This document shows positions 9,583-52,519 of a stretch of 52,970 bases of DNA, in pieces. The translations under genes and the position numbers were made by a program. This DNA comes from Actinomycetota bacterium. Lineage in GTDB: Bacteria > Actinomycetota > Acidimicrobiia > Spongiisociales > UBA4744. The stretch spans positions 124,001 through 176,970 of the forward strand of contig JAADGS010000026.1 in assembly GCA_013152275.1 (NCBI GenBank), read 5' to 3'. Under the pieces are notes generated by a model. The model saw only the letters and a list, made by a program, of their open reading frames with translations. It ran no database searches and had not been told where the DNA came from. How positions within the stretch are numbered: the first letter of the stretch is position 1; each line of letters begins with the position of its first letter.

Positions 9583-10037
9583 GGCGAAAGGCGACTGCGG
9601 TCGTCCTTGGAGCGTTCGTGGTGGCGCTCGATCAGGCCACCAAGGCGTGGGCCCTCAAGGGGATTCCGCCGAACGAGAGCATCATTCTGATCCCTGGGTG
9701 GCTTCGACTCCATGTGACGGAGAACTCCGGTGTGGCCTTCAGCATGCTCCAGGGCGCCGGATCGTTCCTCGTTCTGGCAATCATCGTCGCCGTCATCGTG
9801 ATTCTTCTGGCGATTCGATCTTCGGAGGGATGGTGGGAGACGCTCAGCCTGGGTCTGGTTCTCGGGGGGGCCATGGGCAACCTGGTCGACCGGCTGACCA
9901 GAGGCCCCGGCTTCTCCGACGGCAGGGTTGTCGACTGGATCGACCCGTCGTTCTTTCCGACATTCAACCTTGCCGACATATCCATCACCGTCGGGGTCGC
10001 GCTGCTGCTGCTTTTCAGTGTTCTGTCACGTGAATAG
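9579..10037 (+). CDS. lspA: Lipoprotein signal peptidase II
   Basis: LDQATK, NSGVAFS, GGAMGNLVDR, VVDWI, FNLAD; TTG start overlapping the upstream stop. Confidence 0.96.
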   Translation: MRRKATAVVLGAFVVALDQATKAWALKGIPPNESIILIPGWLRLHVTENSGVAFSMLQGAGSFLVLAIIVAVIVILLAIRSSEGWWETLSLGLVLGGAMGNLVDRLTRGPGFSDGRVVDWIDPSFFPTFNLADISITVGVALLLLFSVLSRE

Positions 10038-10082
10038 CGTGTGGGGCGGCCTTGGGGTCAATAAGAGTCTTCGAGAGCGGAC

Positions 10083-13167: not shown

Positions 13168-14066
13168 GACGATGCTCCCTCGTAGATGTCGATAAAGTGA
13201 CGGAAGTTGGCGGCGATGTCGGTAACGGCTTCGGAACGGCTCATCGTGCCGTCCTTGAGTCCTTCCACACCTGCCCACCAGATGGTCCGGCCGATGGCGA
13301 ATCCCACGTAACCTGGGGTGCCTGCGCCGACGGCGAGCCAGCGGGCGACTCTGGCACTGTCGGCCCAGCGTCCGAGGACGACGGCGGAGACGTGATCCCT
13401 TCCACCCCGACGAATCAGTTTGGAGATGAGATCACAGTCGATGGCGCGATCGAGTCCTTCGATCTTCCAGATATCCGGTTCGACGCCGGCAGCCTGAATC
13501 TCATCGATCGTCTGCAACATCAGGTGCGGACGAATCTCGGTGTCGTACGCGTCCACGTTCCCCCCGACCAACGCGAGTTGCGCCTCCGCGGCCGGCACGA
13601 GAAGCTCGAAGAGAAAGGTCCTGTCATGATCGTGGAGCCAGTTGCCAAGGCGAGCGAGCCTTGCTCCCTGCTGTTCCTTGATCTCGTCTGCGTCGTCCGG
13701 ATTCCACCACACGAGCACCTTCGAGAGATCGGGATCGAATTCCTCGATGTGGCTTCCGAACGCCTCCCCGTACTCGAAGTCGAACGTAGTTTGATCAGAT
13801 TTCTCGACGGGCATCGCCAGTCTGATACCACTCGCCTTGGCGTCGCGAGCCACATCGGCTCCCATCTCTTCGTCGACGAGAATGCCGATGGAATCGAGGG
13901 GGGCACCATCGGAGATAGCTTGCTGGACACCTTCGAAGATGAGCCGCTTCGCGTCGATGACACGTGCCTTTTCGTCGGCGCCGGGTTCCCTGCCTGTGAT
14001 TCCGAACATCTTCTTCATGAAGCTTCCACGATGATCGAAAGCCAGGATGTAGTGGTTCCGGTTCAC
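13164..14066 (-). CDS. Stand-alone DUF2090 (IolC C-terminal-like) class I aldolase-fold protein
   Basis: [55 protein letters not shown]. Confidence 0.82.
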
Positions 14067-29994: not shown

Positions 29995-31137
29995 GTGAAT
30001 GTATCGTCCTGTAGGTGGACCGTACCGGTGGCATGGGCGATCACGGTGCTGTCACTCGTAGGTTTCGTCGTTTTTTCGACAACCCAACTTCCCGAGGCCG
30101 TCCACGGCGCGCCCGACTTTCCCAATTACTACTTCGGGGGAGAGCGCCTCCTGTCGGGTGAACCGGTGTACGGACCGATCGGCGAAGATGTGCGGGAGCT
30201 CTTCGGCGTGGACGGTTACAGGAACTATCCGGCCGATCCACCTGCGACGGTCGTACTCCTTGCACCGCTGTCCCTGTTGCCCTACACGGCGGCATGGTGG
30301 CTGTTCTTCGCGTTGTCCGCGGTGCTGCTCATGGGAGTCGGCTACTCGACTGCGAAGGAGGTTGGCTGGTCACGGCCCGGCGCAGTTGCCCTCGGGGCCA
30401 CCATGCTGATCACTTCGGCCGGGAGGTTTCTTCTCTTCCGGAATCATATGGAGGCGATCCTCCTGCTGTTTCTCTTTCTCGGGTGGCGGGCGTTGCGGCG
30501 TGGTCGGGATCTCGAAGGTGGAGCCTGGTGGGGGTTCGCTGCGGCCCTGAAACTCTTCCCCGTTTTTCTGATCGTCGGGTTGCTCGCGGTGCGCCGAACC
30601 AAAGCGGCGGTTTCTGCGGTGATCGCAGCCGTGGTCGCAACAGGCCTGGGTGTGACGATCCTGGGCTGGGACAACACCATGACGTTCATCCGGGACGTGC
30701 TTCCGGCTTCGAAAGAGTGGTACGGGGCGTTCGGGAACTACTCGCTTCTGTCGTTCGGAACGGCTCTGGTCTCCGAACCGTTCGGATGGGTCCTGGGTGC
30801 TGTGGGCGCTCTTGCCCTCACCTGGTGGTACTGGCGCAGAGCGGAGACCGTCGATCAGGCATGGGTGGGTGGTGTCGCCGCGATGCTGCTGATCAGTCCG
30901 CTGTCCTGGCTCAACTATCTGGTCCTCGTGGTGCCGGGCGTGATGCTGATCGCGCGTCGTCTCGACGTGAGGACGGCTCGTGGACGATGGACACTTCTGG
31001 GTCTGGCCGGTTCACTCGGATTCTGGGGACCGATCCTTTTCGCAGAACGGGTGCCATCCGTCCTGCTGTCATTCGTTCCCACGTACGGGCTGTTGGCTCT
31101 GTTCGTATTGGGCATGCACCGAGCGGTCGAAACCTGA
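29995..31137 (+). CDS. GT87 (DUF2029)-like membrane glycosyltransferase
   Basis: DFPNYY after TM1, YPADPP, LAPLSLLPY, AAALKLFP, GNYSL, SPLSWLNY; multi-TM. Confidence 0.78.
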   Translation: MNVSSCRWTVPVAWAITVLSLVGFVVFSTTQLPEAVHGAPDFPNYYFGGERLLSGEPVYGPIGEDVRELFGVDGYRNYPADPPATVVLLAPLSLLPYTAAWWLFFALSAVLLMGVGYSTAKEVGWSRPGAVALGATMLITSAGRFLLFRNHMEAILLLFLFLGWRALRRGRDLEGGAWWGFAAALKLFPVFLIVGLLAVRRTKAAVSAVIAAVVATGLGVTILGWDNTMTFIRDVLPASKEWYGAFGNYSLLSFGTALVSEPFGWVLGAVGALALTWWYWRRAETVDQAWVGGVAAMLLISPLSWLNYLVLVVPGVMLIARRLDVRTARGRWTLLGLAGSLGFWGPILFAERVPSVLLSFVPTYGLLALFVLGMHRAVET

Positions 31138-36215: not shown

Positions 36216-37085
36216 ATGGGTAGACGAACCTTGGTGTTGATCGTGGCCTTGCTGCTCGCTGCCGTTGCGGCGTTTGCACTGTGGCAGTTCATGAGCAATG
36301 TCCAGAACGAAGCTGAGGCGAAGCTCGAGTACCGGACGGTCTATCGTTCGACAGATCTGATCGCCGAAGGAACCGAGGGATCCCTGGTGCTGTCGCAGAA
36401 GCGTGCCGTCGAGGATCGAGAAGAGACACAATTCATGCCTGAGAACGCCATCGGCTCCGATGAAGAACTGAGGCAGGTGTTGACGGGGCGGGTGGCAGCC
36501 GGCCCCATCTCAGCTCGCCAGATCCTCACGACCGACCAGTGGGTCGCCTTGACGGCGGAGATCAAGCCGCTTGCCGAGCGGATTCCGGAAGGTAGGCAAG
36601 CCATCACCGTGTCCGTGGACTCGGTCCGTGGTGTCAACGGCTTCATCGAACCTGGGGACCGCATCAACGTGATCGTGACACTTCAGGCGGGTATCTCGGA
36701 CTTCGTGCAGCAGAGCGTCGACTCTGGTGTTCCACTCTCCCCGGATGAGCTGGCAGCCATCGAGCAACAGGTGAACGCGGGCTTGATCACACGCTTCGTC
36801 ATGCAGGGATTACCGGTGCTTGCCGTCGGCAGTAAGATCCGAGCCGAGGAAAATGTCGACCGGAACGTGACGGTCACGACCGTCGCCGCCGAGGGTGAAC
36901 AGCCGGCCGACCAGAGCCGGGGTGTGCTGACGCTGGAAGTCACGCCCGAAGAGGCCGAGAGACTTGTGTTCACGTTTGAGAATGGCAGTGTCTGGCTGAC
37001 ATTGGTCCCAGCGGACTTCGTGCCGGTCCCGACCGAAGGTGTGACCAGGGATACGTTGTTCGAGGAGCCAGGTGTCGGACGCTAA
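36216..37085 (+). CDS. cpaB: Flp pilus assembly protein CpaB/RcpC
   Basis: N-terminal TM, SAF-like region, IPEGRQAITV, GVNGFIEPGDRINV, LTLEVTPEEAERL; AAGGAG RBS. Confidence 0.9.
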   Translation: MGRRTLVLIVALLLAAVAAFALWQFMSNVQNEAEAKLEYRTVYRSTDLIAEGTEGSLVLSQKRAVEDREETQFMPENAIGSDEELRQVLTGRVAAGPISARQILTTDQWVALTAEIKPLAERIPEGRQAITVSVDSVRGVNGFIEPGDRINVIVTLQAGISDFVQQSVDSGVPLSPDELAAIEQQVNAGLITRFVMQGLPVLAVGSKIRAEENVDRNVTVTTVAAEGEQPADQSRGVLTLEVTPEEAERLVFTFENGSVWLTLVPADFVPVPTEGVTRDTLFEEPGVGR

Positions 37086-38277
37086 GCGGACGTTTGACGG
37101 TAGTGGGATTCTCATCGTCGACGGCGATGAAGGTTTCCTCAGTGATGCCAACCGCATGTTCGAGAGCGGTGTGGGGACCTCCAGCTCGATAGCGGCTGCT
37201 CAGAGGGCCGTCACAGACGGCAATATCGATCTCATCGTCCTCGGACCGAGCTTCGCAACCGAGACCGGCATTCGGGATGCGAGTTTCCTCGTCGAGGATG
37301 ACCCGGGGCTGGCTGTCGTTGTGGTAGCCGGTACGGTGACCGCGACCTTGTTGAGGGCCGCGATGCGCGCCGGGTTTGTCGACGTGATCGAAGCTCCTCT
37401 CGACACGGGCAAGATGGCCGAGGCGATGGGACAGGCCGAGCGCCTCGGGCGACGTCGACAATCCGGGATGCTCCCGGCCGAGCCGTTCAGCGGTCCGTAC
37501 AGAGAAGCACGGGTCATTACGGTGATGTCGGCGAAAGGTGGGAGCGGGAAGACCGTGACCGCGACCAACCTCACAATGCTGCTCGCGAAGGCCTACGACC
37601 CTTCACGAGTCTGTATTGTCGACGCAGACCTTCAGTTCGGTGATGTCTGCCTTGTGCTGCAGCTCGAACCGAAACTGACCATCGTGGATGCGTCGCACGA
37701 ATTGGAGCATTTGGACGAGTCGCTCCTCGATTCGATCCTCACCGTACATCCATCCGGCCTGAGGGTGTTGGCTGCCCCGCTCGAACCGGTGTTCGCGGAC
37801 CAGGTGTCAACTGCAGCGATGACCGAAATCATCAACCGTCTCCGTCCGATGTTCGACTACATCGTCGTCGATACGGCATCGTTGCTCGACGAGTTGCTCC
37901 TCTCGCTGCTCGAGCGTTCCGACCAGGTACTGTTCGTCGTTGACATGGACCTGCCGAGTGTCAAGAACGCCAAACTCGCTCTTGAGACGCTGCGTCTCCT
38001 CAAATTCCCGTCCGCGAAGATTCAACTCGTGCTCAACAGAAGCAACGCGCGTGCCCGACTCGACGAGAAAGAGATCGAGAAATCACTGAAGCTGAAGATA
38101 TCTGCGGCGATCCCATCGGATGGGATGGTTCCTGCCTCGGTCAATGAGGGCAGGCCGGTGGTGGAGTCCGCTCCCCGCTCGAAGGTGGCCAAGGGTTTCG
38201 AATCGGTATTCAGGCTGGTTTCCGGACCCGAAAAGACTGGTTCAGGTCGCTCGGGAAAGCGCCGATGGTTGTCGTAG
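37072..38277 (+). CDS. cpaE: CpaE/TadZ (pseudo-receiver + MinD-like ATPase)
   Basis: Receiver-like N-terminus lacking the phospho-Asp (VLGPS), SAKGGSGKT, DADLQFGD, VVDT. Confidence 0.88.
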   Translation: MSDAKRTFDGSGILIVDGDEGFLSDANRMFESGVGTSSSIAAAQRAVTDGNIDLIVLGPSFATETGIRDASFLVEDDPGLAVVVVAGTVTATLLRAAMRAGFVDVIEAPLDTGKMAEAMGQAERLGRRRQSGMLPAEPFSGPYREARVITVMSAKGGSGKTVTATNLTMLLAKAYDPSRVCIVDADLQFGDVCLVLQLEPKLTIVDASHELEHLDESLLDSILTVHPSGLRVLAAPLEPVFADQVSTAAMTEIINRLRPMFDYIVVDTASLLDELLLSLLERSDQVLFVVDMDLPSVKNAKLALETLRLLKFPSAKIQLVLNRSNARARLDEKEIEKSLKLKISAAIPSDGMVPASVNEGRPVVESAPRSKVAKGFESVFRLVSGPEKTGSGRSGKRRWLS

Positions 38278-38337
38278 AGAGCTGATAGATTTGGCGGCGG
38301 ACCCCCAGAGGCGCCGGTAAAGGGGAAAGCGAGCATC

Positions 38338-39708
38338 ATGGCATCACTGTCCGAACGAGTCGCAGCGGCGAAGACCTCAGAGGTGGGTTACGACGCCAAG
38401 CGCGAGTCGATGTTCCGCGAGCTGCGGGGCCGGCTGCATTTCAAGGTCGTCGAAGAACTCGGACCGACTCTTTACGACCGGCAGATGAGCGATGCCGAAC
38501 TGCGGCTACGTGTCACCGAAATGCTCGAGTGGGCATTCAGCCAGGAAGACAGCGTCGGACTCTCGCGTGCCGAGAAAACGCAGCTGCTCAACGAGATCAC
38601 CAACGATGTCCTCGGCTACGGTCCGATCGATCCGTTGTTGAACGACCCGGAAGTCACCGAAATCATGGTGAACGGGCCGTTCCAGGTGTTCACCGAACGT
38701 CACGGCAAGCTCGAGAAGACCGACGTTCGCTTTGTCGACGAGGTACATCTGCGTCGCATCATCGACAAGATCGTCGGTGATGTCGGGCGCCGGATCGACG
38801 AGGCAACCCCGCTGGTCGACGCAAGGCTGCCCGACGGTTCCCGAGTCAACGCGGTCATTCATCCACTGGCGATCGGTGGGCCGTTTCTGACGATCCGAAA
38901 GTTTGCCGTCGACCCGTACACGGAAGCGGACCTGATCAGCTTCGGAACGCTGACCGAGAGGGTTGCACGTTTTGTCGAAGCGTGTGTGAAAGGGCGTCTG
39001 AACATCATCATCAGCGGTGGCACCGGTTCGGGAAAGACGACCACGCTCAACGTGTTGTCCGGGTACCTGCCGATGGACGAACGCATCGTCACGATCGAAG
39101 ATGCGGCAGAGCTTCAGCTCCGTCAGGAGCATGTACTCAGCCTGGAATCCCGTCCGGCGAATCTCGAGGGCAAAGGCCAGATCGTGATTCGGGACCTGGT
39201 GCGGAACTCCTTGCGTATGCGCCCGGACCGTATCGTCGTCGGTGAGGCCCGTGGGGGAGAGGCTCTCGACATGCTCCAGGCCATGAACACGGGCCATGAT
39301 GGATCGCTGACGACCATCCACTCCAACTCTCCGAGAGACACTCTGGCTCGTATCGAAACCATGGTGCTGATGGCCGGGTTCGACCTTCCTGTGAGAGCCA
39401 TTCGGGAGCAAGTTGCTTCGGCAGTCAACCTGATCGTGCACCAGGCACGTCTGAGAGACGGGACCCGCCGCATCACCCACATCACCGAAGTGGAAGGCAT
39501 GGAAGGCGACATCATCACCCTCCAGGATCTGTTCCTGTTCGACTTCGGGATGGGCGTCGATGAGAACGGTCGTTATCTGGGTCGTCTCAAAGCGACGGGC
39601 ATCCGTCCGACCTTCTCCGGGCACCTGCAGGACATGGGTATCAGTTTGCCGAGCGACTTGTTCGACCCCGAACCGTTCTCGCGGCGCGAAGGTCAGTACG
39701 GCAGGTGA
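38338..39708 (+). CDS. cpaF: Tad pilus assembly ATPase CpaF/TadA
   Basis: DARLPDGSRVN, GGTGSGKTT, IEDAAEL, LRMRPDRIVVGE, AMNTGHDGS. Confidence 0.97.
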   Translation: MASLSERVAAAKTSEVGYDAKRESMFRELRGRLHFKVVEELGPTLYDRQMSDAELRLRVTEMLEWAFSQEDSVGLSRAEKTQLLNEITNDVLGYGPIDPLLNDPEVTEIMVNGPFQVFTERHGKLEKTDVRFVDEVHLRRIIDKIVGDVGRRIDEATPLVDARLPDGSRVNAVIHPLAIGGPFLTIRKFAVDPYTEADLISFGTLTERVARFVEACVKGRLNIIISGGTGSGKTTTLNVLSGYLPMDERIVTIEDAAELQLRQEHVLSLESRPANLEGKGQIVIRDLVRNSLRMRPDRIVVGEARGGEALDMLQAMNTGHDGSLTTIHSNSPRDTLARIETMVLMAGFDLPVRAIREQVASAVNLIVHQARLRDGTRRITHITEVEGMEGDIITLQDLFLFDFGMGVDENGRYLGRLKATGIRPTFSGHLQDMGISLPSDLFDPEPFSRREGQYGR

Positions 39709-41645
39709 GACTACGAGGCGCGCTCACAGGTCTCCTCGCCTTTGTTCTGCTATTCGGGGGAGGGGTGGTTGCCGCCGCTCAGGCGGGTGGCTCGACGATC
39801 GAGATTTCGGACGTCACCATCACGAGGTACCCGCGAGTCCAGGCCGTCGTCGAACTCCGGAACCTCCGGACGGAACTGGATCCGGCCCAACTGTCCGTCA
39901 CCGAGAACGGGAGACCGGTTCAAGATCTCGAGGTTGAAACAATCGCCGAGTCCGTAGTCCCTGTGGGGATTGTTCTTGCGATCGACGGATCAGGGTCGAT
40001 GCAGGGCGAACCGATTGACGCCGCCAAGCAGGCGGCATTGTCGTTCATCGAGCAGAAACGGGATCAGGACTTCATAGCGCTTCTCGTGTTCGCAAGTGAT
40101 GTCCGGGTGCTCTCGGGGTTCACGAGTTCAAAGACGGCGTTGACCGGCAGAGTCGAGTCGATTCAGGCCGGCGGAGAGACCGCTTTCTACGATGCGGTGG
40201 TGCGGGGAGCGTCGCTGTTCACCGGAGATGCCGCTCGCCTCGAGCCGAATATGATCGTGCTGACCGACGGCGCCGACACCGTCAGCGAGGCCACTCTCGA
40301 CGACGCAATTGCAGCGACCCGATCGGTCCGCGTCTTTGGCGTTGCCCTCGAGTCACCCGAGTTCAATCCGACGGACATCGAAGCTATCGCCGATTCTTCG
40401 GGCGGCTTGTTCCTTTCGACGCCGGATCCGGCCGCGCTGACGAGCCTGTACGATCAGATCAAGCGCGAACTCGACAACAAGGTCGTGGTTCGCTTTACCG
40501 CGACGCAGGATCAGGCGGGCCCACTGGCCATCGGTGTTGGCTATCAGGGGATCGAAGCCTCGACGAGTGTGGACGTACCGGGGTTCATCAAGCAAACGTC
40601 GACAACCACTACGACGGTCCCGACCACTTTTGCCCAACCGGCGCCATTCGCACCATCCGTCCAATCCCCCCTTCCTCTTTCGACACTTGCATGGATCGGT
40701 CCGGGTGCCGTCGGGCTTGGGCTTGCGCTGTTCATCTTCATTCTTGCCGGGCCTCGAGAAGAGGACAGCGCTTCGGCGTTACGCAAGCGGCTGCGCTCCT
40801 ATGGCGCGTCCGACGGAACCGAGGAAGTCAAGAAGGGAGTGCTTGGACGGATCTTCGGTGTGTTCTCGCGAGGCGCCGAAGAAGCGGTGCGCCGCAGAGG
40901 TCTTCTCAACGGCGTCAACGCCGCACTCGAACAAGCGAATATCCCTTTGCGTGGCGGTGAGGCGATCGCGGCAGCGCTGGGTCTGAGTTTGCTGGCCGGC
41001 GCAATCGTCGGTGTCTTCAGCCGGAGCGCGCTCACGGGTGGCGGTGCGTTCTTCCTCTCGATCGTGACCGTTCTGCTGCTGATCCAGTTTGCGGGCGGGC
41101 GTGAAAAACGCACGTTCGAGAATCAGCTGCCCGACACACTGATTCTGTTGGCGACATCCCTTCGGGCGGGCTACTCGCTGCTGCAGGCCGTCGAGGCCGT
41201 GGCGAGTGAAGCTCAGCAACCGACGGCGCGCGAATTCGGCAGGGCAATGGCCGAATCGAGGCTGGGTCGTGGAGTCGTGGAGTCTATGCGGGGTATCGGA
41301 GAACGGATGCAATCGGAGGATTTCAGCTGGGCTGTCATGGCGATCGAAATCCAGCGTGAAGTGGGTGGCAACCTTGCCGAGGTGCTCCAGACGGTGGCCG
41401 ACACGATGCGCCAACGCAACCGGCTCCGCGGGGAGATCAAGGCACTGACCGCTGAAGGAAGAATCTCCGCGATTGTGCTGGGAGCTCTGCCGTTCGTCCT
41501 CTTTGCATTTCTGTTCGCCACGAACAGAAACTACCTGGATCCACTCCTGACAAGAGTCTCCGGCATCATCGCGATCGCCGTGGGCGTCGTGCTCATGGGC
41601 GTAGGCGTGTACTGGTTGAAGAAGATCGTGGACATCGAGGTGTAG
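39705..41645 (+). CDS. tadB: TadB (T2SS-F domain) fused to an N-terminal VWA domain
   Basis: Signal peptide, MIDAS DGSGS...T...LTDG, Thr/Pro linker, TMs, QLPDTL, REVGGNLAEVL, ALTAEGR. Confidence 0.92.
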   Translation: MRLRGALTGLLAFVLLFGGGVVAAAQAGGSTIEISDVTITRYPRVQAVVELRNLRTELDPAQLSVTENGRPVQDLEVETIAESVVPVGIVLAIDGSGSMQGEPIDAAKQAALSFIEQKRDQDFIALLVFASDVRVLSGFTSSKTALTGRVESIQAGGETAFYDAVVRGASLFTGDAARLEPNMIVLTDGADTVSEATLDDAIAATRSVRVFGVALESPEFNPTDIEAIADSSGGLFLSTPDPAALTSLYDQIKRELDNKVVVRFTATQDQAGPLAIGVGYQGIEASTSVDVPGFIKQTSTTTTTVPTTFAQPAPFAPSVQSPLPLSTLAWIGPGAVGLGLALFIFILAGPREEDSASALRKRLRSYGASDGTEEVKKGVLGRIFGVFSRGAEEAVRRRGLLNGVNAALEQANIPLRGGEAIAAALGLSLLAGAIVGVFSRSALTGGGAFFLSIVTVLLLIQFAGGREKRTFENQLPDTLILLATSLRAGYSLLQAVEAVASEAQQPTAREFGRAMAESRLGRGVVESMRGIGERMQSEDFSWAVMAIEIQREVGGNLAEVLQTVADTMRQRNRLRGEIKALTAEGRISAIVLGALPFVLFAFLFATNRNYLDPLLTRVSGIIAIAVGVVLMGVGVYWLKKIVDIEV

Positions 41646-42563
41646 ATGGACTGGAAACTCTTCTCCGCTCTCTCGATGTTCGCGGCCACCACGGGCGTTA
41701 TCACCTGGATCGGCTTTGGGATCATCAAGGCTCGCAAAGCGGCGACCGAACGTCTTGCTGCGTACGGGTCGGCCGAATTCATGCGCGAAGAGACACTGAA
41801 GAAGACATTCGCCGAGCGTGCGGTAGCTCCCGTGTTCATGAAACTTGGCAAGTGGTTTGCTCGATTTACACCTGTGGGATGGATGGAGAAGACACAGCAT
41901 CGTATCGTGCTCGCAGGCAGTCCAGGCAACTTGGACGCGAATGGGTGGGCGGTCATCAAAGTCATCTCCGTCACGATCGCTGCCGTGCTGTTCTTTCTGG
42001 TGAGACCCGGAATGAACGCCCGAACGACACTGATTGCCTTTGCCCTGCTTGGCATCCTGGGCTTCTTTGGACCGGATGTCCGCCTCACACGCATGATCGA
42101 CGATCGACGCAAGGCCATGCAGAAGGCCCTCCCCGATGTCCTCGATCTGCTGGTGATCAGTGTCGAGGCGGGTCTTGGCTTCGACTCGGCTCTTGCACGA
42201 GTTGTCGGAACGGTCCCCGGTCCGCTCTCCGAGGAGTTCTTCCGCATGCTGCAAGAGACTCGCGTCGGAGTGAGTCGCAGAGAGGCGATGCGGCACCTGG
42301 CGGGGCGGACGGACGTCGATGAACTGCGGTCCTTCCTTCTCGCCATGATGCAGGCGGAAGCGTTCGGTGTCTCTATCGCACAAGTGCTTCGCGTGCAGGC
42401 CGAGGAGATGCGCGTCAAACGCCGGCAGCGTGTGCAGGAGAAGGCGTTCGCCGCTCCCGTGAAAATGGTCTTTCCGCTGGTGTTCTGTATCTTCCCGGCG
42501 CTGTTCATCGTGTTGCTCGGACCCGCGGCGATCTCGATCTACGAGACATTCACGGGACTGTAA
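41646..42563 (+). CDS. tadC: TadC (T2SS-F domain)
   Basis: LPDVLDLLVISVEAGLGFDSAL, PVKMVFPLVFCIFP. Confidence 0.95.
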   Translation: MDWKLFSALSMFAATTGVITWIGFGIIKARKAATERLAAYGSAEFMREETLKKTFAERAVAPVFMKLGKWFARFTPVGWMEKTQHRIVLAGSPGNLDANGWAVIKVISVTIAAVLFFLVRPGMNARTTLIAFALLGILGFFGPDVRLTRMIDDRRKAMQKALPDVLDLLVISVEAGLGFDSALARVVGTVPGPLSEEFFRMLQETRVGVSRREAMRHLAGRTDVDELRSFLLAMMQAEAFGVSIAQVLRVQAEEMRVKRRQRVQEKAFAAPVKMVFPLVFCIFPALFIVLLGPAAISIYETFTGL

Positions 42564-43933
42564 TGACCGTGATGGCGGTCCCGTGGTGGAGGCGGCTGAC
42601 CCCCATACACCTTATCCTGCTCGTTCCTTGGGTGGGACTGGTGATCGGCGCGGCCTCGCCAATCCGAGACAATTCCTTCCTGTGGCATGTTCGCGCCGGG
42701 ACTCTGCAACTCGATGTGGGACATGTGCTGCGGACCGACCCATTCTCGTTCACGCTGCACGGTGCCCCATGGAGAACCCAGTCATGGCTGGTCGAACTCG
42801 GCTACGGACTGCTGGAACGTTGGACGCACGGGCTGGGATGGGTTCCGGTGATGCTGGTTGTCGTGGGAGCGTTGACATTCCTCCTTGTCGGACTGTCGGT
42901 GTACCGCCGATCAAGGAGTCTTCTTGTCACAGGCATCGTCATGGTGTTGTTCACGTGGCTGGGGCTGGCGTATCAGGTCCCGAGACCTGTGCTGATGTCG
43001 TTTCTGTTTTTGGCCTTACTGGTCGTAATGATGGATCACGGCATCATGTGGGCGGTGCCACTGGTGCTCTGGGCATGGGCTTCGGTACATGGTTCCTGGG
43101 TGCTTGGCCTCGGGTATGTCACACTCGATGCGCTCGCGTATCGGCGATCGTGGAGACCGGTCATGAGGACTTTGGCTGCCTCATTGATCACGGTGAGCAT
43201 TACGGCCCATGGACTTGGAGTGTGGGAGATCCTTGGCGCCTTCTTGCGGAATCGGGATGCGCTCCGGCTCATTACGGAATGGGCGGTGCCGGACATCCTT
43301 TCCGTACCCAACCTTCCCTATGCCCTCGTAATCGTCGCTCTGTTGGTGGCTGCGGCGAAAGGAGCAATCGACACCAGGAGACTCTGGCTCATCGTGCCGT
43401 TCCTTCTCTTCGGCCTGACGTCCGAGAGAAGCCTGTTTCCTGCTGCGATCGTGCTTGTGCCGTGGACGGTGTTGGCTCTGTCGGCACACAAGGACCTGGT
43501 TCGTCTATCGCCGCGCCGGCCAGAGGCCATCGTCAACGCTCTGATCGCCATCTTGATCGTGGTGACGCCGTTGGCGGCCTATATCGGTGTGCGGCCAGGG
43601 ATCGACCCGACTGGGTTCCCGGTCCAGGCGGCGCGCCACCTCACCGAGGGCCGAGTGTGGAGCGACGACCGAACGGGCGGATTCCTGATCTATGCCTATG
43701 GGCCGGAACGGGAGGTGTTCATCGATGATCGAGCCGAACTGTACGGAGTCGACTTCATGAGAGAGCTCGTGCAGACCCGTGACGGAGATCCCATTTGGAG
43801 GAACGTGTTTCAGCAGCAGAACATCCAGCAAGCACTCGTGCACCGCGACTCGGGGATCGGGCGTGCGCTCGACGCTGCGGGTTGGTACAGGGCCTTCGAA
43901 GATGACACGTGGGCACTCTGGACGAAGCCATGA
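42563..43933 (+). CDS. Polytopic membrane protein, putative GT-C-fold glycosyltransferase
   Basis: DNSFLWHVRAG/TDPFSFT loop after TM1, many TM helices, soluble C-terminal domain with GGFLIY and FIDDRAELYG; TAATG coupling to tadC. Confidence 0.6.
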   Translation: MTVMAVPWWRRLTPIHLILLVPWVGLVIGAASPIRDNSFLWHVRAGTLQLDVGHVLRTDPFSFTLHGAPWRTQSWLVELGYGLLERWTHGLGWVPVMLVVVGALTFLLVGLSVYRRSRSLLVTGIVMVLFTWLGLAYQVPRPVLMSFLFLALLVVMMDHGIMWAVPLVLWAWASVHGSWVLGLGYVTLDALAYRRSWRPVMRTLAASLITVSITAHGLGVWEILGAFLRNRDALRLITEWAVPDILSVPNLPYALVIVALLVAAAKGAIDTRRLWLIVPFLLFGLTSERSLFPAAIVLVPWTVLALSAHKDLVRLSPRRPEAIVNALIAILIVVTPLAAYIGVRPGIDPTGFPVQAARHLTEGRVWSDDRTGGFLIYAYGPEREVFIDDRAELYGVDFMRELVQTRDGDPIWRNVFQQQNIQQALVHRDSGIGRALDAAGWYRAFEDDTWALWTKP

Positions 43934-43988
43934 AGGAAGCCCACACGGCGCCGACAGTCGAAAGGAGATCCTCGACGCGTCGCGGCCT

Positions 43989-44144
43989 CTAGGAGAGCGA
44001 GCTGGCGATGTTGCTCCACATCTGTGAGTTCTGCGCTCCTGTGAATCTCACGGCGATCAGTGCTACGACCGCAATGAGGATGACGAGGAGTCCCCACTCG
44101 ATGAGGCCGGCTCCTCTGTCACTTTGTGGGTTCCAGCGCATCAT
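43989..44144 (-). CDS. flp: Second Flp-family pilin (51 aa, not in ORF track)
   Basis: MMRWNPQSDRG-AGLIEWGLLVILIAVVALIAVRFTGAQNSQMWSNIASSLS; GGAG RBS. Confidence 0.85.
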   Translation of the reverse strand: MMRWNPQSDRGAGLIEWGLLVILIAVVALIAVRFTGAQNSQMWSNIASSLS

Positions 44145-44254
44145 CTACTCCGGTATGTGTATCGGGATAAAAACGCTATCACGCAGAGTGGCTATGGGCC
44201 ATAGGCCTGGGGTCTCAATTCGGGAAGAATGCACGCAGGAGTTCACGTGTAGGG

Positions 44255-44308
44255 AGACAAGGCGAAGCCGGGGCCCCAGGTGCGACCCCGACTCGTATTC
44301 ACCTGTCT
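44255..44308 (-). terminator. Stem-loop directly after the first flp gene
   Basis: Minus strand agacaggtgaa..gagtcgggg / ccccggctt..cgccttgtct; no poly-U tail. Confidence 0.5.
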
Positions 44309-44312
44309 TTGG

Positions 44313-44495
44313 CTAGCTGAGTGCGCTGCCGATGTCGCTGAATGTCTTGGAGACCTGCCCCCCGGCGAACTTGACGGCAACCAAGGCGACGATGGCGATC
44401 AGCACTACCAGGAGTGCATACTCGACCATGCTCGCGCCCCGGTCATCCCTGAGTGTTGCCCATTGCTTCTGGGCCGCGATCCACAGTGTCAACAT
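44313..44495 (-). CDS. flp: Flp-family type IVb pilin
   Basis: DDRG-ASMVEYALLVVLIAIV Flp motif; AGGAGG RBS. Confidence 0.94.
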   Translation of the reverse strand: MLTLWIAAQKQWATLRDDRGASMVEYALLVVLIAIVALVAVKFAGGQVSKTFSDIGSALS

Positions 44496-44558
44496 TGGTA
44501 TTCCCTCCTAAGGGGTGCTGCCAGGGGCTACGATAGCACAGAGGGTGGTGGAAGCTCT

Positions 44559-44576
44559 ATGGGTCGGCCGACCTAT
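44559..44576. promoter_or_regulatory. Palindromic operator candidate upstream of flp
   Basis: ATGGGTCGGCCGACCTAT, near-perfect dyad about 25 nt upstream of a TG-TATCGT -10 on the minus strand. Confidence 0.5.
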
Positions 44577-44581
44577 TCGAG

Positions 44582-45214
44582 CTACCATCGAGGGGCGATA
44601 CCGAGGCGGATGGCTTCGACCGCCGCTTGGGCACGATCGCTGACATCGAGTTTTGCGAAGATCGAAGCGAGGTGATTCTTCACTGTTTTCTTAGAGATAA
44701 ACAGGCGATTTGCCAACTCCTCCGTTGCTGTGACACCACGCCCCAGTAGGGCAAGGATCTCACGTTCGCGGCTGGTCAGTAACCTGGCTCCCGGATCGAG
44801 CACGGGCTCCTGGAACGGCTCCAGAAGGTCACGGAGAGTGGTCGTCATGGCGAACCGTTCTCCTGACGCAGCGGCCCTGATAGCTGCGGCGAGTTGTGGC
44901 AACGGCGTCGATTTCGACAGGAAACCTGCCGCGCCGGCCTCGGCAGCGCGTGCCCGCTGCTCGGCATCGGCGTGCATGGTCACAACAATCGAGGGGACAC
45001 GGGAGGCAATGGTCTCCAAGACCTGGATTCCATCGACGATCGGCATTTCCAGGTCGACGATCGCAATGTCGGTCCGCTGTCGGTTGAGCATGGCGATCAG
45101 CTGGGCGCCATCGTAGGCGACTCCCACCACATTGATGTCAGGAAGACCTCCGAGAGCTTCGGCGAGTCCGTCTGCGAAGAGCCGATGATCATCTGCGATG
45201 GCAACGTTGATCAT
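44582..45214 (-). CDS. NarL/LuxR-family response regulator
   Basis: IADDH, IVDLEMP, GFLSKS, LTSREREIL, TVKNHLASIFAKL. Confidence 0.96.
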   Translation of the reverse strand: MINVAIADDHRLFADGLAEALGGLPDINVVGVAYDGAQLIAMLNRQRTDIAIVDLEMPIVDGIQVLETIASRVPSIVVTMHADAEQRARAAEAGAAGFLSKSTPLPQLAAAIRAAASGERFAMTTTLRDLLEPFQEPVLDPGARLLTSREREILALLGRGVTATEELANRLFISKKTVKNHLASIFAKLDVSDRAQAAVEAIRLGIAPRW

Positions 45215-46713
45215 TCAGGGCCCCAGGCAATTGTGACCGTCGTCCCGCGGTGGGTGCTCGAAATGTTCAACGAGGCACCCATCCGCTCCGCTCGCTCTTC
45301 CATTCCGACGAGGCCGAACCTTCCGTCGGACACCTTGCTGCGATCGAATCCGGTTCCATCGTCGAACACGGTAATGCGGCCCTCATCGAAATCTGAGGTG
45401 CCGTGGACGATGATCGCAGTGGCGTGTGAATGCGCTATCGCGTTCCGAAGAGCCTCGACGACGATGGCGGCGATGTCCGGTGCGAGTGACGGTCGTGGTG
45501 GTCTGAGTTCTTCGAGGCGGATATCGACCTTGGGAGAGTTTTCCGGTAGATCTCCTGCGATGCGACGGAGAACCTCACTGATGCTCGGCTGTGGGGACAT
45601 GCGGAGGTCTGCCACAGTCGACCGGACATCCTCGACGAGGCCGGTCACCGACGAGCGCAATACCTGCAAATGCTGAGCAAGGTCGGGATCCGCCGGGTGT
45701 CGAAGGAGGGCGAGATCCACGGCGAGTCCGAGCGAAGCGAGGGACGGTCCGATCTCGTCGTGCAGGTCTCTGGCAAGGCGTTGGCGTTCTTCACGGACCG
45801 CCCGCTGAGCGATGTCCTGCAGGAGCAGGATGTTCCCGAAGGCGAGCGCGACCGGCTGTAGGAGGTCATGGGCAACGGTCCAGTCGTTTCTCGTCAGCTC
45901 GTCCTGGGATGTGATCGCTGCGAATCCGACGCTGTGTTCACCAACCGAGAGAGGGATGACTGTCCGTATCGACCCAGGTGATTCCGCGCCGGCACGCGCC
46001 ACGACGACGGGTCCGTCGTTCCCTGCGAGGGCGATGACCCCTCCGTCCATGGAGATGGAATCCGCAAGTTCTTCGAGAGCAGAGATGCCGACTGTGACGG
46101 GATTGAGCTCTCTGCTGTCGGCTTCTTCTACGAAGCGTGCGAGGAGCGAGTTGGCACGGCTCAGTCGTTCGATGCGAGCTGTCGCCTCTGCCGAAGCTCG
46201 CGTGAGCTGCATCTCACGGGTTCTCGATTCCAGGAGGACGCGTCTCGCCTGAGCGGAAGTGATCGCGACAAGGAGGATGAGGGCGACCCATTGGAGGACA
46301 GCCGAGACGTCGAAGGTGTCGGTCGCGAATGTGACGATCGTGAGCGCAGCGATGCCGAGTGTCGAGGCCGCAAGTCCGGGTCTCAAGCCACCAAGGGTTG
46401 CAGCGACGAGGACAGGACTCAGTGAGAGAAGGAGGTAGGGGCTGGCGGCGCCGCCGGTGAGAGCCGAGGCACTCATGGTCAACAGGATGCCGGCAGTCGT
46501 CAGGAGGTCTTGCAGCCACTGTCGCGACAGATAGGAGATCGGGATCGTCTGCAGACCGACGACATACGTGCCTCCGAGCACTGCGGCCACGACCACCGGT
46601 GTGGTCGCACCCTGGTCGAAAAACGAAAGGAAGACACCGAGCACAAGGGTCAGCCATGAGAGAAGGATGAATACCCGTCGGAGCCTGAGTTCGCGTCGAT
46701 CCTGATTGAGCAC
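45211..46713 (-). CDS. HisKA_3 (NarX-type) membrane sensor kinase
   Basis: About 6 N-terminal TM, GAF-like linker, ERQRLARDLHDEIG, EALRNAIAHS, DDGTGF, GLVGMEERA. Confidence 0.94.
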   Translation of the reverse strand: MLNQDRRELRLRRVFILLSWLTLVLGVFLSFFDQGATTPVVVAAVLGGTYVVGLQTIPISYLSRQWLQDLLTTAGILLTMSASALTGGAASPYLLLSLSPVLVAATLGGLRPGLAASTLGIAALTIVTFATDTFDVSAVLQWVALILLVAITSAQARRVLLESRTREMQLTRASAEATARIERLSRANSLLARFVEEADSRELNPVTVGISALEELADSISMDGGVIALAGNDGPVVVARAGAESPGSIRTVIPLSVGEHSVGFAAITSQDELTRNDWTVAHDLLQPVALAFGNILLLQDIAQRAVREERQRLARDLHDEIGPSLASLGLAVDLALLRHPADPDLAQHLQVLRSSVTGLVEDVRSTVADLRMSPQPSISEVLRRIAGDLPENSPKVDIRLEELRPPRPSLAPDIAAIVVEALRNAIAHSHATAIIVHGTSDFDEGRITVFDDGTGFDRSKVSDGRFGLVGMEERAERMGASLNISSTHRGTTVTIAWGPE

Positions 46714-47493: not shown

Positions 47494-49503
47494 ATGCCAT
47501 CCTTGCGAGTGCACTCCGACTTCCAGCCGTCCGGTGATCAACCCAAGGCGATTGCCGCGTTGGCCGAGGGGATCAACGCCGGCGAGCGGTTCCAGACGCT
47601 GCTGGGCATCACCGGATCGGGCAAGTCCGCGACGATCGCCTGGACGATCGAGCAAGTGCAGAAGCCGACCCTGATCCTGGCGCCGAACAAGGCGCTCGCG
47701 GCGCAACTCGCCAACGAATTCCGCCAGTTCTTCCCCGAGAATCGAGTCGAGTACTTCGTCAGCTACTACGACTACTACCAGCCCGAGGCGTACATCCCTC
47801 AGACGGACACCTACATCGAAAAGGACTCCTCGGTCAACGACGAGATCGACCGTCTACGACACGCCGCGACGAGTGCGCTGCTGTTCCGCGACGACGTCAT
47901 CGTTGTGGCTTCCGTATCCGCCATCTACGGACTGGGCACACCGGAGGAGTACTCGGGCCGGGTGCTGCGCCTCATCAAGGGAGTCGAGTACCCGATGCGT
48001 GAGGCAATGCGGAGGCTGGTCGACATTCAGTACGAACGAAACGAGGTGAGCCTTGTGCGCGGCCGGTTTCGCGTCAAGGGCGACACCCTCGAGGTGTTTC
48101 CCGCCTACGAGGAGACGGTGGCCAGGGTCGAGTTCTGGGGAGATGAGGTGGAACGGATTCTCCGCATGAACCCGGTTACAGGAGAGGTGCTCGGCGAACT
48201 CGATGAGCTGTGGGTATATCCGGCGTCGCACTATGTCGCATCGGAAGAACGGATGCAGCGTGCCATCGCCGCCATCGAGATCGAACTGGGCGAACGCCTC
48301 GCCGAGTTGGAGGCCTCTGGCAAGTTGCTGGAGGCCCAGCGGCTGCGCATGCGAACGTCCTACGACTTGGAGATGATGCGCGAGGTCGGGTTTTGTTCGG
48401 GGATCGAGAACTACAGCCGCCACATCGATGGTCGAGAAGAGGGCGAAGCCCCATTCACGCTGCTCGACTACTTCCCGGACGGATTCCTCACCGTCCTCGA
48501 CGAGAGCCATGTGACCGTGCCACAGATTCGCGGCCAGTACGCAGGGGACAGGAGCCGTAAGGACGTTCTGGTCGAACACGGATTCCGACTGCCTTCCGCG
48601 AGAGACAACCGTCCGCTGCGTTTCGATGAGTGGTTGGAGAGGGCAGGTCAGGTGGTCTTCATGTCGGCGACACCGGGGCCGTTCGAGTTGGAGCATTCAG
48701 GGCGGGTTGTCGAGCAGATCGTGCGTCCCACCGGCCTGGTTGATCCTGAGGTGATCGTGCGTCCGACAAAAGGCCAGATCGACGATCTGATGCATGAGAT
48801 TCGGCAGCGGGCTGCGAACGATCAGCGGGTGCTTGTGACGACGCTCACAAAGAAGATGTCGGAGGATCTTACGGACTATCTGTTGGAGATGGGGGTTCGT
48901 GCCCGGTACCTGCACTCGGAGATCGACACCCTCGAACGGGTGCAGATCCTTCGAGAGCTGCGCCTTGGCGAGTTCGACGTGCTGGTGGGCATCAACCTAC
49001 TGAGGGAAGGTCTCGACCTGCCCGAGGTCTCGCTCGTTGCCATTCTGGACGCCGACAAGGAGGGGTTCTTGCGGTCGGAGACAAGTCTGATCCAGACGAC
49101 CGGGAGGGCGGCTCGCAATGTGGACGGTCAGGTGATCATGTACGCAGACCAGGTGACGAAATCGATGGAGAGGGCGATCGGAGAGACGAACCGGCGGCGC
49201 AAGCTGCAGGTCAAGTACAACGAAGAGCATGGCATCGATCCGCAGACGATTCGCAAGAAGGTCAGCGATATCCTCGAGTTGGTGCAGTCGCACGATGTCG
49301 CAGTGCAGCGGCGAAAGACGGAGGTGCAGTCACGCCGGCCGCTGGATCTCGACACCGACGACCTTCAACGGTTGATTCAGAGCCTGGAGGAGGAGATGCA
49401 TGAGGCAGCGAAGGATCTCCGCTTCGAATACGCGGCTCGCCTTCGCGATGAGATCGAGGAGCTGAAACGAGAGCTACGCGACATCGCGGAGGCTTGTTCT
49501 TGA
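47494..49503 (+). CDS. uvrB: Excinuclease ABC subunit B
   Basis: [40 protein letters not shown]-terminal UVR domain. Confidence 0.99.
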
Positions 49504-50954
49504 CCAATGACACGTGTGGCGTTGGAACGTTCTCGGATCCGTCATCCGGCGGAAAGAGGGATCGAAGTGGCGGCTCGAGCCCCAAAGTAGCGGTTGTCCT
49601 CATCGGCGCATGGCTGACGGCTGTGTTGATGCTGGTGGGCCTGCGCGCGTGGGAGTTCTACGCGGCGGGCTTCGATCTGGGAGTCTTCGTACAGGCGTTC
49701 CGGACCATGATGTTGCATGGGCCGTTCGCCACGATTCCGATGCTTGGTCAAACATTCTTGGAAGATCACTTCTCCCCTCTTGCTCTGCCGCTGGTGCTCC
49801 TGGCCCGATCATCTGCATTGCCTTATCTGCTGCTGGCCGTGCAGACAGGAATGGTTGCTCTTGCGGGGCTCTTCATCTGGAGAATCGCAGTTCGAGGTGG
49901 TAGCCGCCGGCCGCTGCTCCACCTTCTGGGGTTCTTGCTCGCTCCCGTGGTGGTCGGAGCGGTATGGAGCGATTTCCACGTGTCTGTCCTCGCGGCGCCG
50001 TTTCTGGTCCTGATGCTTGACGGTCTCCACACAGGCGCAGACCGGAGGGTTCTGTGGGCGGGTTCGGCTGCGGCCCTCATGAGGGAAGACATCGCGCTTG
50101 TCGTACTGATCGCCATCCTGGTGTGGCGACCGAGTCCTCGCATGTGGCCCCTGATCATCTTGGCCGGTTTGTCCGTGGCCGGTGGCGTGCTGTTAGGTGG
50201 TCCGAACTGGTTCGTGGAGAGTGGTACGAGGTATCTCGGGGCAACGGACACTCCAATCCGGAGTGCTCTCGCCGTGGCGTGGGACTCCGGCAGGCTGTTG
50301 CCGTTGGTGCTGTTCCTCGTGATGCCTTGGGTGTTCCTGGGTCACATCGGATGGCGATCCTGGGCGGTTGCCACGGTGTTGTTCATCCCCCTCGCTTTTC
50401 TCGACCTTCCTGTGCTCGATCACGTCGGCTCTCACTATTACCTCCCGCTTGGAATTGTCTTGGCCGTCGGCGCTGCACGAGGTGGTGAGCGGTTCGTACC
50501 CTCCCTGCGTTGGGTGTCGTACGCCGCCGTTGCCCTGGCTCTCGTCGTCGGTCCACTCGTATTCGGAATCTCGGGCTATCAAGACGTTCCGGCGTGGCGT
50601 GTGGCCAAGGTGGCCATGCAAGATGCATCTTCCGTCGCCTCTGTGCACGCGTGGGTCAACTCGTTGGCTCTTGGAGAATCCGTCTCGGCCGTGAACTCCC
50701 TGGTGCCCTGGATCGAGGCGACCGATGGCGTCTGGGTGTGGCCTTCGCCGTTACGGGATGTGGTGTTCGCGAAGCAGGCGCAGACACCGATCGTACGTGC
50801 TGATCCGAGTGCTTGGGTGACGGATGTGATCGCACCTGTGAGCGAGGATTCCCGGCTGGGTCCGACCGGAGAAGCGATTGGACTCGGCAAGCTTGGTTTT
50901 GTTCGCAGGTCGGTTTCGCCGCTTGGTAGCTTCGTGTGGTGGCAGAGGCCATGA
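49500..50954 (+). CDS. DUF2079-like membrane protein (putative GT-C fold)
   Basis: [24 protein letters not shown]; multi-TM; start approximate. Confidence 0.72.
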
Positions 50955-52519
50955 GTCGTCGCACTTCGAAGATTTCGGGTCGGTTTCGCGGAGTTGCCGG
51001 ATCGTTGGACAAAGTCGGAGATGACTGCCCTACCGGGCCGAGGTCGCGTAAACCGTGGCTCGTTCGTCCTTTGGGGCCGGAGCACTTCATTCTTCTCTCC
51101 ACCTTGGCCGCGACCGTCGGGTTCACGGTGGTGAGTGCCGTCAAGTTTGCCTCGTTTCGCTACGGGTTCGACACCGCGGTTGTCTTGAACGTGTTATGGC
51201 GCCTCGCGCACGGCTATGACAGCGTGACAGCTCTCACTGGATTCGCCCACCTGTCTGATCACCCCTCGTTGCTTCTGCTTACGCTCGTGCCGTTGACTCG
51301 ATTGGCCGGCCCTTGGATACCACAGTTGCTCTTCGCTCTGCAGGCGCTGTCCACGGCGATGGTCGCCTGGTCTGTATGGCGGCTGGCTCGTGCTCGTGGC
51401 CTCGACATGGGCGTTTCGGTGAGCTTGTACCTCGTCACGCTGCTCGGCGCAGGTAGCTGGTTCGCAGCCACGGGGGAGTTCCATATCGTGGACCTTGCTC
51501 TCGGCCCACTGGCGGCAGTCGCGGCGAACCACGCACTCGACCGTCCCGGAAGAGCTGTCTTTTGGGCGGCTGTCGCGGCTTCGGCTCGTATCGAAATCGC
51601 GGTCGTGATCATCATCATGGGTCTCGTCATACTGAGAGAGAAGCGTCGCTCGGGCTTCTCGCTGATGGGCGTCGGTGCCGTGGTCGGCACGGTGCTGATG
51701 GTCATAGGAAGTCTCTCGAACGGCGGAGGAGTGAGCTTTGCCGCTCATCTGGGTCATCTTGGCTCGTCACCGATCGAGGCACTGGGGACCATTGCTCGGC
51801 ATCCTTTCGAGCTGTTCAGACCGCTTGGGAATCCGATCATGTTGATCGCCCTGTTCTTCTGGTTGGCGTCGTTCGCCGCACTTCCGGTCGTTCTGGGCGG
51901 ACGTTGGCTGCTGCCCGCGCTGCCGATGCTCGCGATCCCGATGCTCGGCACGTGGACGCCTGCCGACTGGTACTTCGAGCACTACTGGCATGTGCTGCTC
52001 GTCTTCGGTGCAGTGGCGGCGGTCGAGGGCCTGCTCAGGCTCCGGGCTTCACCAAAGACGTTGTCTTTGCTTCTCGTGGGATCGAGCCTTGTCGTTTGGG
52101 TGGCCTTTGGACCGCTGAGTCCCCACATGCCAGTGGGCTGGCGGCTGGATCTGGCAAGACCTGATCCGGCCGCGACCGAGGTGGCACTGCACGTGCCGCC
52201 TTCAGAGTCTCTTTCCGTACCGCTCAACCTGGCGCCCTCATTCGCGCTGCGACGCAGTATCACATTCTTCCCGAGACCCTTCTCGTGCGAGGGGACCGAG
52301 TCCCTGCTTCCTGGGCTTCTTGCTCCGGGTGCAGAGCCACCTGAGACGGTTGTAGCAACGGACGGGTGGCCGCCGCAAGATGATGGCGTGTGGGCAGCTT
52401 TGAGGAACCACTACCGGCTCGGCTTTACAGTGGGAGAGTACGGCGTGTGGCAACTCCAGGACAGAGTTGGCGCCTCCACACTTGCCGTCGACTGCTACTC
52501 GGGCGAACCTGAACCGTGA
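50951..52519 (+). CDS. DUF2079-like membrane protein, diverged paralog
   Basis: FDTAV, HLSDHPS, EFH, ARIE, HYW; ATGA overlap with the previous gene. Confidence 0.68.
   Translation: MSRRTSKISGRFRGVAGSLDKVGDDCPTGPRSRKPWLVRPLGPEHFILLSTLAATVGFTVVSAVKFASFRYGFDTAVVLNVLWRLAHGYDSVTALTGFAHLSDHPSLLLLTLVPLTRLAGPWIPQLLFALQALSTAMVAWSVWRLARARGLDMGVSVSLYLVTLLGAGSWFAATGEFHIVDLALGPLAAVAANHALDRPGRAVFWAAVAASARIEIAVVIIIMGLVILREKRRSGFSLMGVGAVVGTVLMVIGSLSNGGGVSFAAHLGHLGSSPIEALGTIARHPFELFRPLGNPIMLIALFFWLASFAALPVVLGGRWLLPALPMLAIPMLGTWTPADWYFEHYWHVLLVFGAVAAVEGLLRLRASPKTLSLLLVGSSLVVWVAFGPLSPHMPVGWRLDLARPDPAATEVALHVPPSESLSVPLNLAPSFALRRSITFFPRPFSCEGTESLLPGLLAPGAEPPETVVATDGWPPQDDGVWAALRNHYRLGFTVGEYGVWQLQDRVGASTLAVDCYSGEPEP

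Follow-up and report, generated by a model that had tools for sequence, protein, structure and literature searches.

Organization of the tad locus

A stretch of actinobacterial DNA of 52,970 nt (GenBank GCA_013152275.1, contig JAADGS010000026.1, positions 124,001-176,970 of the forward strand), referred to here as the window, contains a Tad/Flp pilus locus at positions 36216-46713. The gene that directly follows tadC in this locus codes for a membrane protein of 456 amino acids (aa), which adopts a GT-C glycosyltransferase fold in its predicted structure. Judging from this structure, from profile comparisons and from a modelled complex, the protein is probably an O-glycosyltransferase of the Flp pilins.

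The first part of the locus lies on the forward strand. It starts with cpaB/rcpC for a Tad assembly protein (36216..37085; PF16976 E 1e-21, TIGR03177 above cut-off), with an ATG at 36216 and GGAG upstream of it. This gene is followed by cpaE/tadZ (37072..38277), for which the family scans give a receiver and a MinD-like ATPase domain, and by cpaF/tadA for the assembly ATPase (38338..39708; PF00437 E 1e-61, TIGR03819). Next come a VWA::tadB fusion (39705..41645; VWA and T2SSF), whose translation contains a Thr-rich linker (TTTTT), and tadC (41646..42563; T2SSF E 2e-20). The open reading frame (ORF) for the 456-aa candidate Flp glycosyltransferase (42563..43933, forward strand) overlaps with its start the stop of tadC (TAATG) and converges on two flp genes. 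Both of these lie on the reverse strand: flpA (43989..44144) encodes a variant pilin (G/AGLIEW, C-terminus SSLS) that is conserved in the family and has a weak PF04964 match (E 8e-4, below cut-off), and flpB (44313..44495) encodes a canonical pilin (G/ASMVEY, C-terminus SALS) with PF04964 above cut-off. In flpA, the usual Tyr at +6 is a Trp (AGLIEW) and the tail is more divergent; many relatives keep one such flpA-like variant pilin beside one to five (1-5) near-identical copies. Upstream of the flp genes and on the same strand, a NarL/LuxR-type response regulator (44582..45214) and a membrane HisKA_3 sensor kinase (45211..46713, reverse strand) were recognized by family scans, and both are conserved with the locus.

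The whole tad block is flanked by rpsA on one side and coaE on the other, and the GC content across the region is flat (~0.61). In genomes that lack the block, the distance between rpsA and coaE is at most 75 bp in three of the five tested; another has a 1.9-kb gap and the last is without a coaE match. The original prediction, made from the DNA letters and their translations, had described this gene order from rpsA to coaE as well as the TAATG overlap and the motif strings DNSFLWH, TDPFSF, GGFLIY and FIDDRAELYG in the 456-aa translation. The ORF list, the family scans and the junctions place every gene and every string where it was described. The protein database lets the ORF start at residue 24. 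The ATG at 42563 was kept because a 79%-identical homolog spans the full length and because the first helix needs residues 14-30.

All six Tad components Flp, CpaB, CpaE, CpaF, TadB and TadC are thus encoded at the locus. The genome has one A24 prepilin peptidase, which is located on another contig, as are TadE-like genes (C3) and another cpaF of more distant relation, accompanied by pilin-like genes (C90). Promoter and terminator scans at the locus gave matches no better than chance.

Fold of the 456-aa protein

The AlphaFold2 model of the protein (pLDDT 94.2, pTM 0.92) has some 11 membrane helices, with an alpha/beta domain at the C-terminus. Foldseek gave 20 matches at E≤0.001, all of them STT3, DPY19, AglB or PglB; the best is STT3A (E 1.6e-5, TMq 0.58). 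The independent aligner VIA ranks STT3B first (Z 16.0, root-mean-square deviation 4.7, 410 aligned residues), followed by ALG12 (Z 14.9), DPY19 (14.8), ArnT (14.0) and AglB (13.5). The C-terminal part (residues 346-456) by itself matches the isolated AglB C-terminal domain (AfAglB-S2) with a VIA Z of 6.5. A subunit of the glycosylphosphatidylinositol (GPI) transamidase, a GT-C-fold chain with a non-catalytic role, is also among the fold matches (Z 11.9-12.4). The nearest named Atlas clusters are PMT_2, STT3 and Dpy19. The GT-C architecture that had been read from the translation is established at the level of the predicted model.

The ORF has no NCBIfam match, and Pfam gives just EpsG below threshold; as the EpsG match (E 1.3e-5) stays under the cut-off and is found in one of 77 diverse family members, this identity was set aside. 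The Pfam models for STT3, PMT and PMT_2 match none of the 77 members (0/77). Likewise, PF02366 and PF13231 (PMT/ArnT-like) match neither the ORF nor these members, and PF02516 and PF21436 (STT3 and STT3-PglB_core) match none of them. PF13231 and PF21436 were not found in the host genome either, nor was PF21436 in 151 genomes of the phylum. Searches of PDB sequences with the protein and three alignments returned no GT-C protein, and their matches were spurious, including a repeat lectin.

Relation to AglB and STT3

The protein belongs to a large unnamed family, which amounts to 23,092 clusters (50% identity) at E≤0.001 and 13,472 at 1e-10, and for which Pfam and NCBIfam have no model. Its named homologs come mostly from Acidimicrobiia metagenome bins. 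A profile of 90 family members was compared with an AglB/STT3 profile of 46 sequences tied to human STT3A, and the two match colinearly (374 columns, E 6.5e-5, probability 64%). With trimmed alignments the score is 43.6; reversal gives 16.9, and none of 30 block shuffles exceeds 26.6. For the C-terminal domain by itself the score is 25.1 (against at most 16.1). A GT87 profile (11 sequences) reaches 21.6, whereas an AglB subset of similar depth (10 sequences) reaches 43.8.

The motifs of STT3, AglB and PglB, whose roles (DXD, TIXE/SVSE, WWDYG, DGGK/DNxT) were taken from the available text of PMC8342417, can be mapped onto the family through this moderate profile alignment, so that the residue correspondences do not derive from a superposition. 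The key residues of the 456-aa protein are D36, H42, R141, H176, E239, R289, D388 and R390. D36 in the first external loop (EL1) is kept in 118/118 close and 75/81 distant members, and D36-N-S38 aligns with the first DXD; of the distant members, 38 have D-x-D and 42 have D-x-S. The Glu of TIXE/SVSE in EL5 corresponds to I-T-E239-W (Glu in 80/81 distant members), and the Arg of the STT3A 'MVRL' motif to R289 (81/81). From DGGK/DNxT the Asp alone is kept, as D388-D/G-R390, where Asp and Arg are each present in all 81 distant members. H176 is also kept in 81/81. The second DXD, which provides metal ligands, is replaced by R141-P142 (Arg in 80/81), and WWDYG is not kept: the aligned segment reads SDDRTGG and columns 367-371 are variable. 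The protein lacks both the second DXD and WWDYG and is hence not an N-oligosaccharyltransferase (N-OST). By its sequence it looks like an active, compact relative of AglB. Long STT3/AglB-like proteins that do contain WWDYG were seen on two contigs of the viral collection (L182, 1127-2932; L183, 629-3361).

Linkage of the family to tad and flp genes

In the GTDB contigs 232 relatives were found, and the best 80 of these 232 loci were read. The ORF directly follows tadC in 78 of the 80, and the other two are without upstream DNA, so the arrangement is not due to chance. These 80 close loci are one inherited locus. In the host order, 76 of 151 genomes carry the family and all 76 carriers also have tadC, which is present in 100 genomes; none of the 51 tadC-negative genomes carries it. 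From the 24 tadC-positive non-carriers of the order, 21 were examined. In seven of them the orthologous locus is there but the gene is not; two have a cut or rearranged locus, and the remaining ones a tad locus of another kind. The seven orthologous loci indicate that the gene is accessory.

The linkage extends to other Actinomycetota. In a sample of the phylum, 43 of 301 genomes carry the family in a search with a wider alignment (35/301 in an earlier, narrower search), and Flp occurs in 41/43 carriers vs 83/258 non-carriers. This background includes genomes marked as unpublished (G048, and in the case of CpaB G088 and G120 as well). Actinomadura macrotermitis (P0280) is a cultured carrier from this phylum. 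Beyond the order, a hand tally of 38 carriers gave 23 with the gene within about 8 kb of tad or flp genes, 4 without such linkage and 11 on contigs that are too short, or 23 of the 27 decidable cases. The gene orders vary here: the gene can be divergent from flp, convergent on tadC, present in tandem copies or accompanied by GT87 and TadG-like genes. The members linked to tad or flp are spread over eight (8) separate starred subclades in a quick-mode tree. Change counts on this tree were set aside, because two tad-linked loci (L023, L036) were mislabelled and short contigs had been scored as unlinked. The neighbourhood survey supports a link of the homologs to pilus loci well beyond the inherited locus.

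At seven loci (L023, L024, L036, L066, L069, L253 and L256) the family is present twice: apart from the tad-linked copy there is a distant one no more than about 13 kb away, either before rpsA/polA or after coaE. In the L230 locus (G360, 9319-12795), which is among the seven orthologous loci of the order that lack the gene, the slot between tadC and flp contains an unrelated polytopic protein of 639 aa (loop RHDARLY) together with a FAD oxidoreductase. The 639-aa protein has no Pfam match and a weak score against the family profile (25.6), and is possibly a replacement transferase.

Flp pilins and candidate acceptor residues

The pilins were compared in a set of 114 distinct sequences from 74 of 85 carrier loci. 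The original prediction had pointed to the Ser at the end of both flp products and to type IV pilins that are O-glycosylated on a terminal Ser, as by TfpO/PilO. The observation is correct for this locus, but the argument is not supported, as the terminal Ser does not generalize: the last residue varies and is Ser in just 24/114 related pilins. Ser+29 of the mature pilin, by comparison, is kept in 110/114. The terminal acceptor was therefore rejected, and internal Ser/Thr residues are the likelier ones. In FlpB the candidates are Ser+29, Thr+31, Ser+33 and Ser+37. N-glycosylation of FlpB was also rejected, since the mature pilin is without Asn and an N-x-S/T sequon is present in 8/114 related pilins. 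The Ser/Thr share after residue 24 is higher in pilins from loci that have the gene, both in the host order (0.296 vs 0.218 for 10 pilins from loci without it) and in other Actinomycetota (0.238 for 17 pilins vs 0.156 for 39).

Predicted enzyme-pilin complex

A complex of the 456-aa enzyme with FlpB residues 20-60 (the mature pilin and the preceding Gly) was predicted with a score of 0.80, while the best of three controls had 0.00. In a benchmark, the score mark was reached by 116/157 solved complexes and 2/215 mismatched pairs. The runs share at least 86% of their contacts, and the partner has a pLDDT of at least 69. In the model, the pilin helix packs on transmembrane helix 1 (TM1) and on residues 124-139. 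The predicted interface comprises pilin residues 43-48 and 51-54 and enzyme residues 35-36, 288-289 and 369-370, which belong to the predicted active-site region. At the docking surface, P22, W132 and D369 show 96-98% conservation within the close clade; this does not hold for the family at large. The model supports binding of FlpB by the GT-C enzyme.

Distant homologs and putative donor genes

Most loci of distant homologs are cassettes of a GT2, in part a methyltransferase, and a GtrA gene, many of them on short contigs and with rhizobial and betaproteobacterial examples. This layout is that of the three-component Gtr systems (GT2, GtrA and GT-C), as far as the available text of PMC11127046 describes them. 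In the host genome there is one pair of GT2 and GtrA genes, located on another contig (C44). No phage record matched a rhizobial homolog.

Two of the GT2-(methyltransferase)-GtrA cassettes adjoin F-type tra genes. On betaproteobacterial plasmids (L145, 11156-16494; L146, 11149-16482), GT2, methyltransferase and GtrA genes and two tandem family members lie beside an F-type tra region, for which modification of a conjugative pilus or of the surface is possible.

Other features of the window

Three more GT-C-type genes flank the locus on the forward strand: a GT87 gene (29995-31137) before tRNA-Leu/polA and two DUF2079 genes (49494-50954 and 50936-52519) after uvrB. They are found in few related loci. 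On the reverse strand the window also contains a tandem pair of phosphofructokinase genes (10994-13278) and a gene for a 537-aa protein with two Thy1 domains (20255-21868).

Proposed function and alternatives

The reading that best fits these results is that the ORF after tadC is probably an Flp O-glycosyltransferase, and a dedicated role in pilin modification, as assigned by the original prediction, is plausible. The membrane enzyme would take a sugar from a lipid-phosphate carrier and attach it to internal Ser/Thr residues of Flp. The transfer would occur on the outer face of the membrane, and the Tad pilus would be built from sugar-coated subunits. The pilin helix is predicted to dock on TM1 and TM3, with its outer segment passing D36, R289 and D369. 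The donor would be a polyprenyl-phosphate sugar that is made and flipped by unlinked genes, for which the GT2 and GtrA pair on another contig may be responsible. An O- rather than an N-linkage is inferred because mature FlpB is without Asn and WWDYG is absent. R141 may replace the metal that is held by the second DXD in the relatives. Pilus assembly would not depend on the modification, which may serve adhesion or shield against phage.

Several observations weigh against this reading. Seven orthologous tad loci do without the gene, and the carriers are kin and not independent, so the co-occurrence counts overstate the association. Many family members are not linked to pilins. Among the loci of distant homologs (9 plasmid and 28 metagenome loci), flp or tad genes are nearby in just 3/37, and most proteobacterial homologs reside in Gtr-like cassettes without pilins. 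The pilin evidence is mild: Ser+29 is still present in 7/10 pilins of the gene-less orthologous loci, which makes it largely a trait of the clade, and the pilin sets are related by descent, so that the Ser/Thr enrichment adds mild support; beside distant homologs, Ser/Thr occupies +29 in just 9/17 pilins. As to the complex, Ser+29 is not among the confident contacts, the helices of the predicted interface show no higher conservation than the remaining ones (0.56 vs 0.58), and the controls included no other single membrane helices. The catalytic D-x-D reads D-N-S in this protein. Lastly, the acceptor class is not fixed by the fold, as ALG12 (acting on a glycan) and ArnT (on a lipid) score near STT3B.

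It is unlikely, with a modest chance at best, that the enzyme is a protein glycosyltransferase with other main targets, be it surface proteins at large or other parts of the Tad machinery, namely CpaB, minor pilins of the TadE/TadG type or the Thr-rich linker of the VWA::TadB fusion. The gene is joined to the tadB-tadC operon and not to flp, and TadB does carry the TTTTT linker. In two Thermoleophilia-type loci, moreover, a family gene immediately precedes, in the same orientation, a TadG-like and/or GT87 gene, and paralogs away from tad genes occur in the same order. When the gene order changes, however, the gene is most often found right beside flp; the complex prediction favours FlpB as the partner, and the TadE-like genes of the host are on other contigs. 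The near scores of ALG12 and ArnT, together with the Gtr layout of the rhizobial and betaproteobacterial cassettes and the position of several actinobacterial homologs among GT87/PMT_2 genes, would also fit an enzyme that adds sugar to a glycolipid or cell-wall polysaccharide, as Gtr GT-C proteins do, and that lies beside pilus genes for co-regulation in adhesion. The chance of this is small. The family is strictly absent from the tadC-negative genomes of the order, flp adjacency recurs across subclades, the profile is nearer to AglB/STT3 than to GT87, and one rhizobial cassette, that of Phyllobacterium zundukense A18/3m, comes after two flp genes.

It is very improbable that the protein is a non-catalytic chaperone or scaffold with a GT-C fold that binds pilins in the membrane. 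Non-catalytic chains with this fold exist and are represented in the fold list by the GPI transamidase subunit, and roughly half of the distant members have D-N-S instead of D-x-D as their EL1 motif. Nevertheless, the polar residues of the predicted active site (E239, R289, H176, D388 and R141) are near-invariant in the distant members, homologs travel with genes for donor synthesis, and orthologous tad loci occur cleanly without the gene. The assignment as Flp O-glycosyltransferase is retained as the probable one.

Comparison with known systems and significance

The closest parallel to the proposed function is TfpW of Pseudomonas aeruginosa/paraeruginosa (group IV), as described in the available text (bioRxiv 10.1101/2020.04.19.049825). 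TfpW is also a GT-C protein with 11 predicted membrane helices and is encoded beside the pilin gene. It O-glycosylates internal Ser/Thr residues and uses a lipid-linked donor from separate genes, including one for a GtrA-like protein. Compared to this, the gene of the 456-aa protein is 55 bp from flpA, and convergent rather than co-transcribed. TfpW differs in that it acts on type IVa pilins of diderms and, at 646 aa, combines a C-terminal TPR domain with the motifs DDX (in loop 1) and YX6PFX7P, none of which was found in the 456-aa translation or the family scan. The 456-aa protein instead has an AglB-like alpha/beta tail and D-N-S; the pilins that it faces are short helical Flp pilins, and the host is a monoderm. 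TfpO/PilO is, according to the same text, another pilin-linked membrane transferase, but one that needs the C-terminal Ser that most of the related pilins lack.

Structurally, STT3, AglB and PglB (GT66) provide the best fold matches, the colinear profile and equivalents of the TIXE/SVSE Glu and the 'MVRL' Arg; the first DXD (D-N-S here) and DGGK/DNxT (the Asp alone) have partial counterparts. Unlike them, the 456-aa protein is ~250 residues shorter, has R-P at the second DXD, has lost WWDYG and matches neither PF02516 nor PF21436. The Gtr systems share their cassette layout with distant homologs and their GT2 and GtrA components with the host genome; here, however, the GT-C gene stands alone in the tad operon with the donor genes unlinked, and the acceptors of Gtr systems known from the available part of PMC11127046 are polysaccharides. 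A precedent for glycosylated Flp pilins is provided by Aggregatibacter, where the modification was reported and attributed to RcpC, which is now described as a structural conduit; the available text names no transferase (PMC12307814). A literature search, which left most subscription journals outside its scope, found no account of a GT-C enzyme that acts on Flp pilins. The locus likely represents a variant of pilin-linked glycosylation with a TfpW-like working and an AglB/STT3-like build.

It is possible, and proposed here tentatively, that the very large unnamed family consists of minimal, probably metal-independent relatives of AglB/STT3, which would act as single-subunit O-glycosyltransferases on Tad/Flp pilins and select them by docking of a membrane helix and not by a sequon. 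Tad pili are widespread among Actinomycetota (201 of the 301 sampled genomes have CpaB), and in Pseudomonas pilin glycosylation was described to block phage, in the available text of bioRxiv 10.1101/150227. The family is a concrete and testable candidate for Flp glycosylation, with named putative catalytic residues and a substrate of 41 residues. As the ~23,000 clusters have no Pfam or NCBIfam model, an assignment of the family would annotate many genomes, and would provide both glycoengineering and the study of oligosaccharyltransferase evolution with a small enzyme of the AglB type. If the broader proposal is true, the family would supply the enzyme that is missing for the glycosylation of Tad pili in several phyla, and would be a bacterial sister group of the N-oligosaccharyltransferases.

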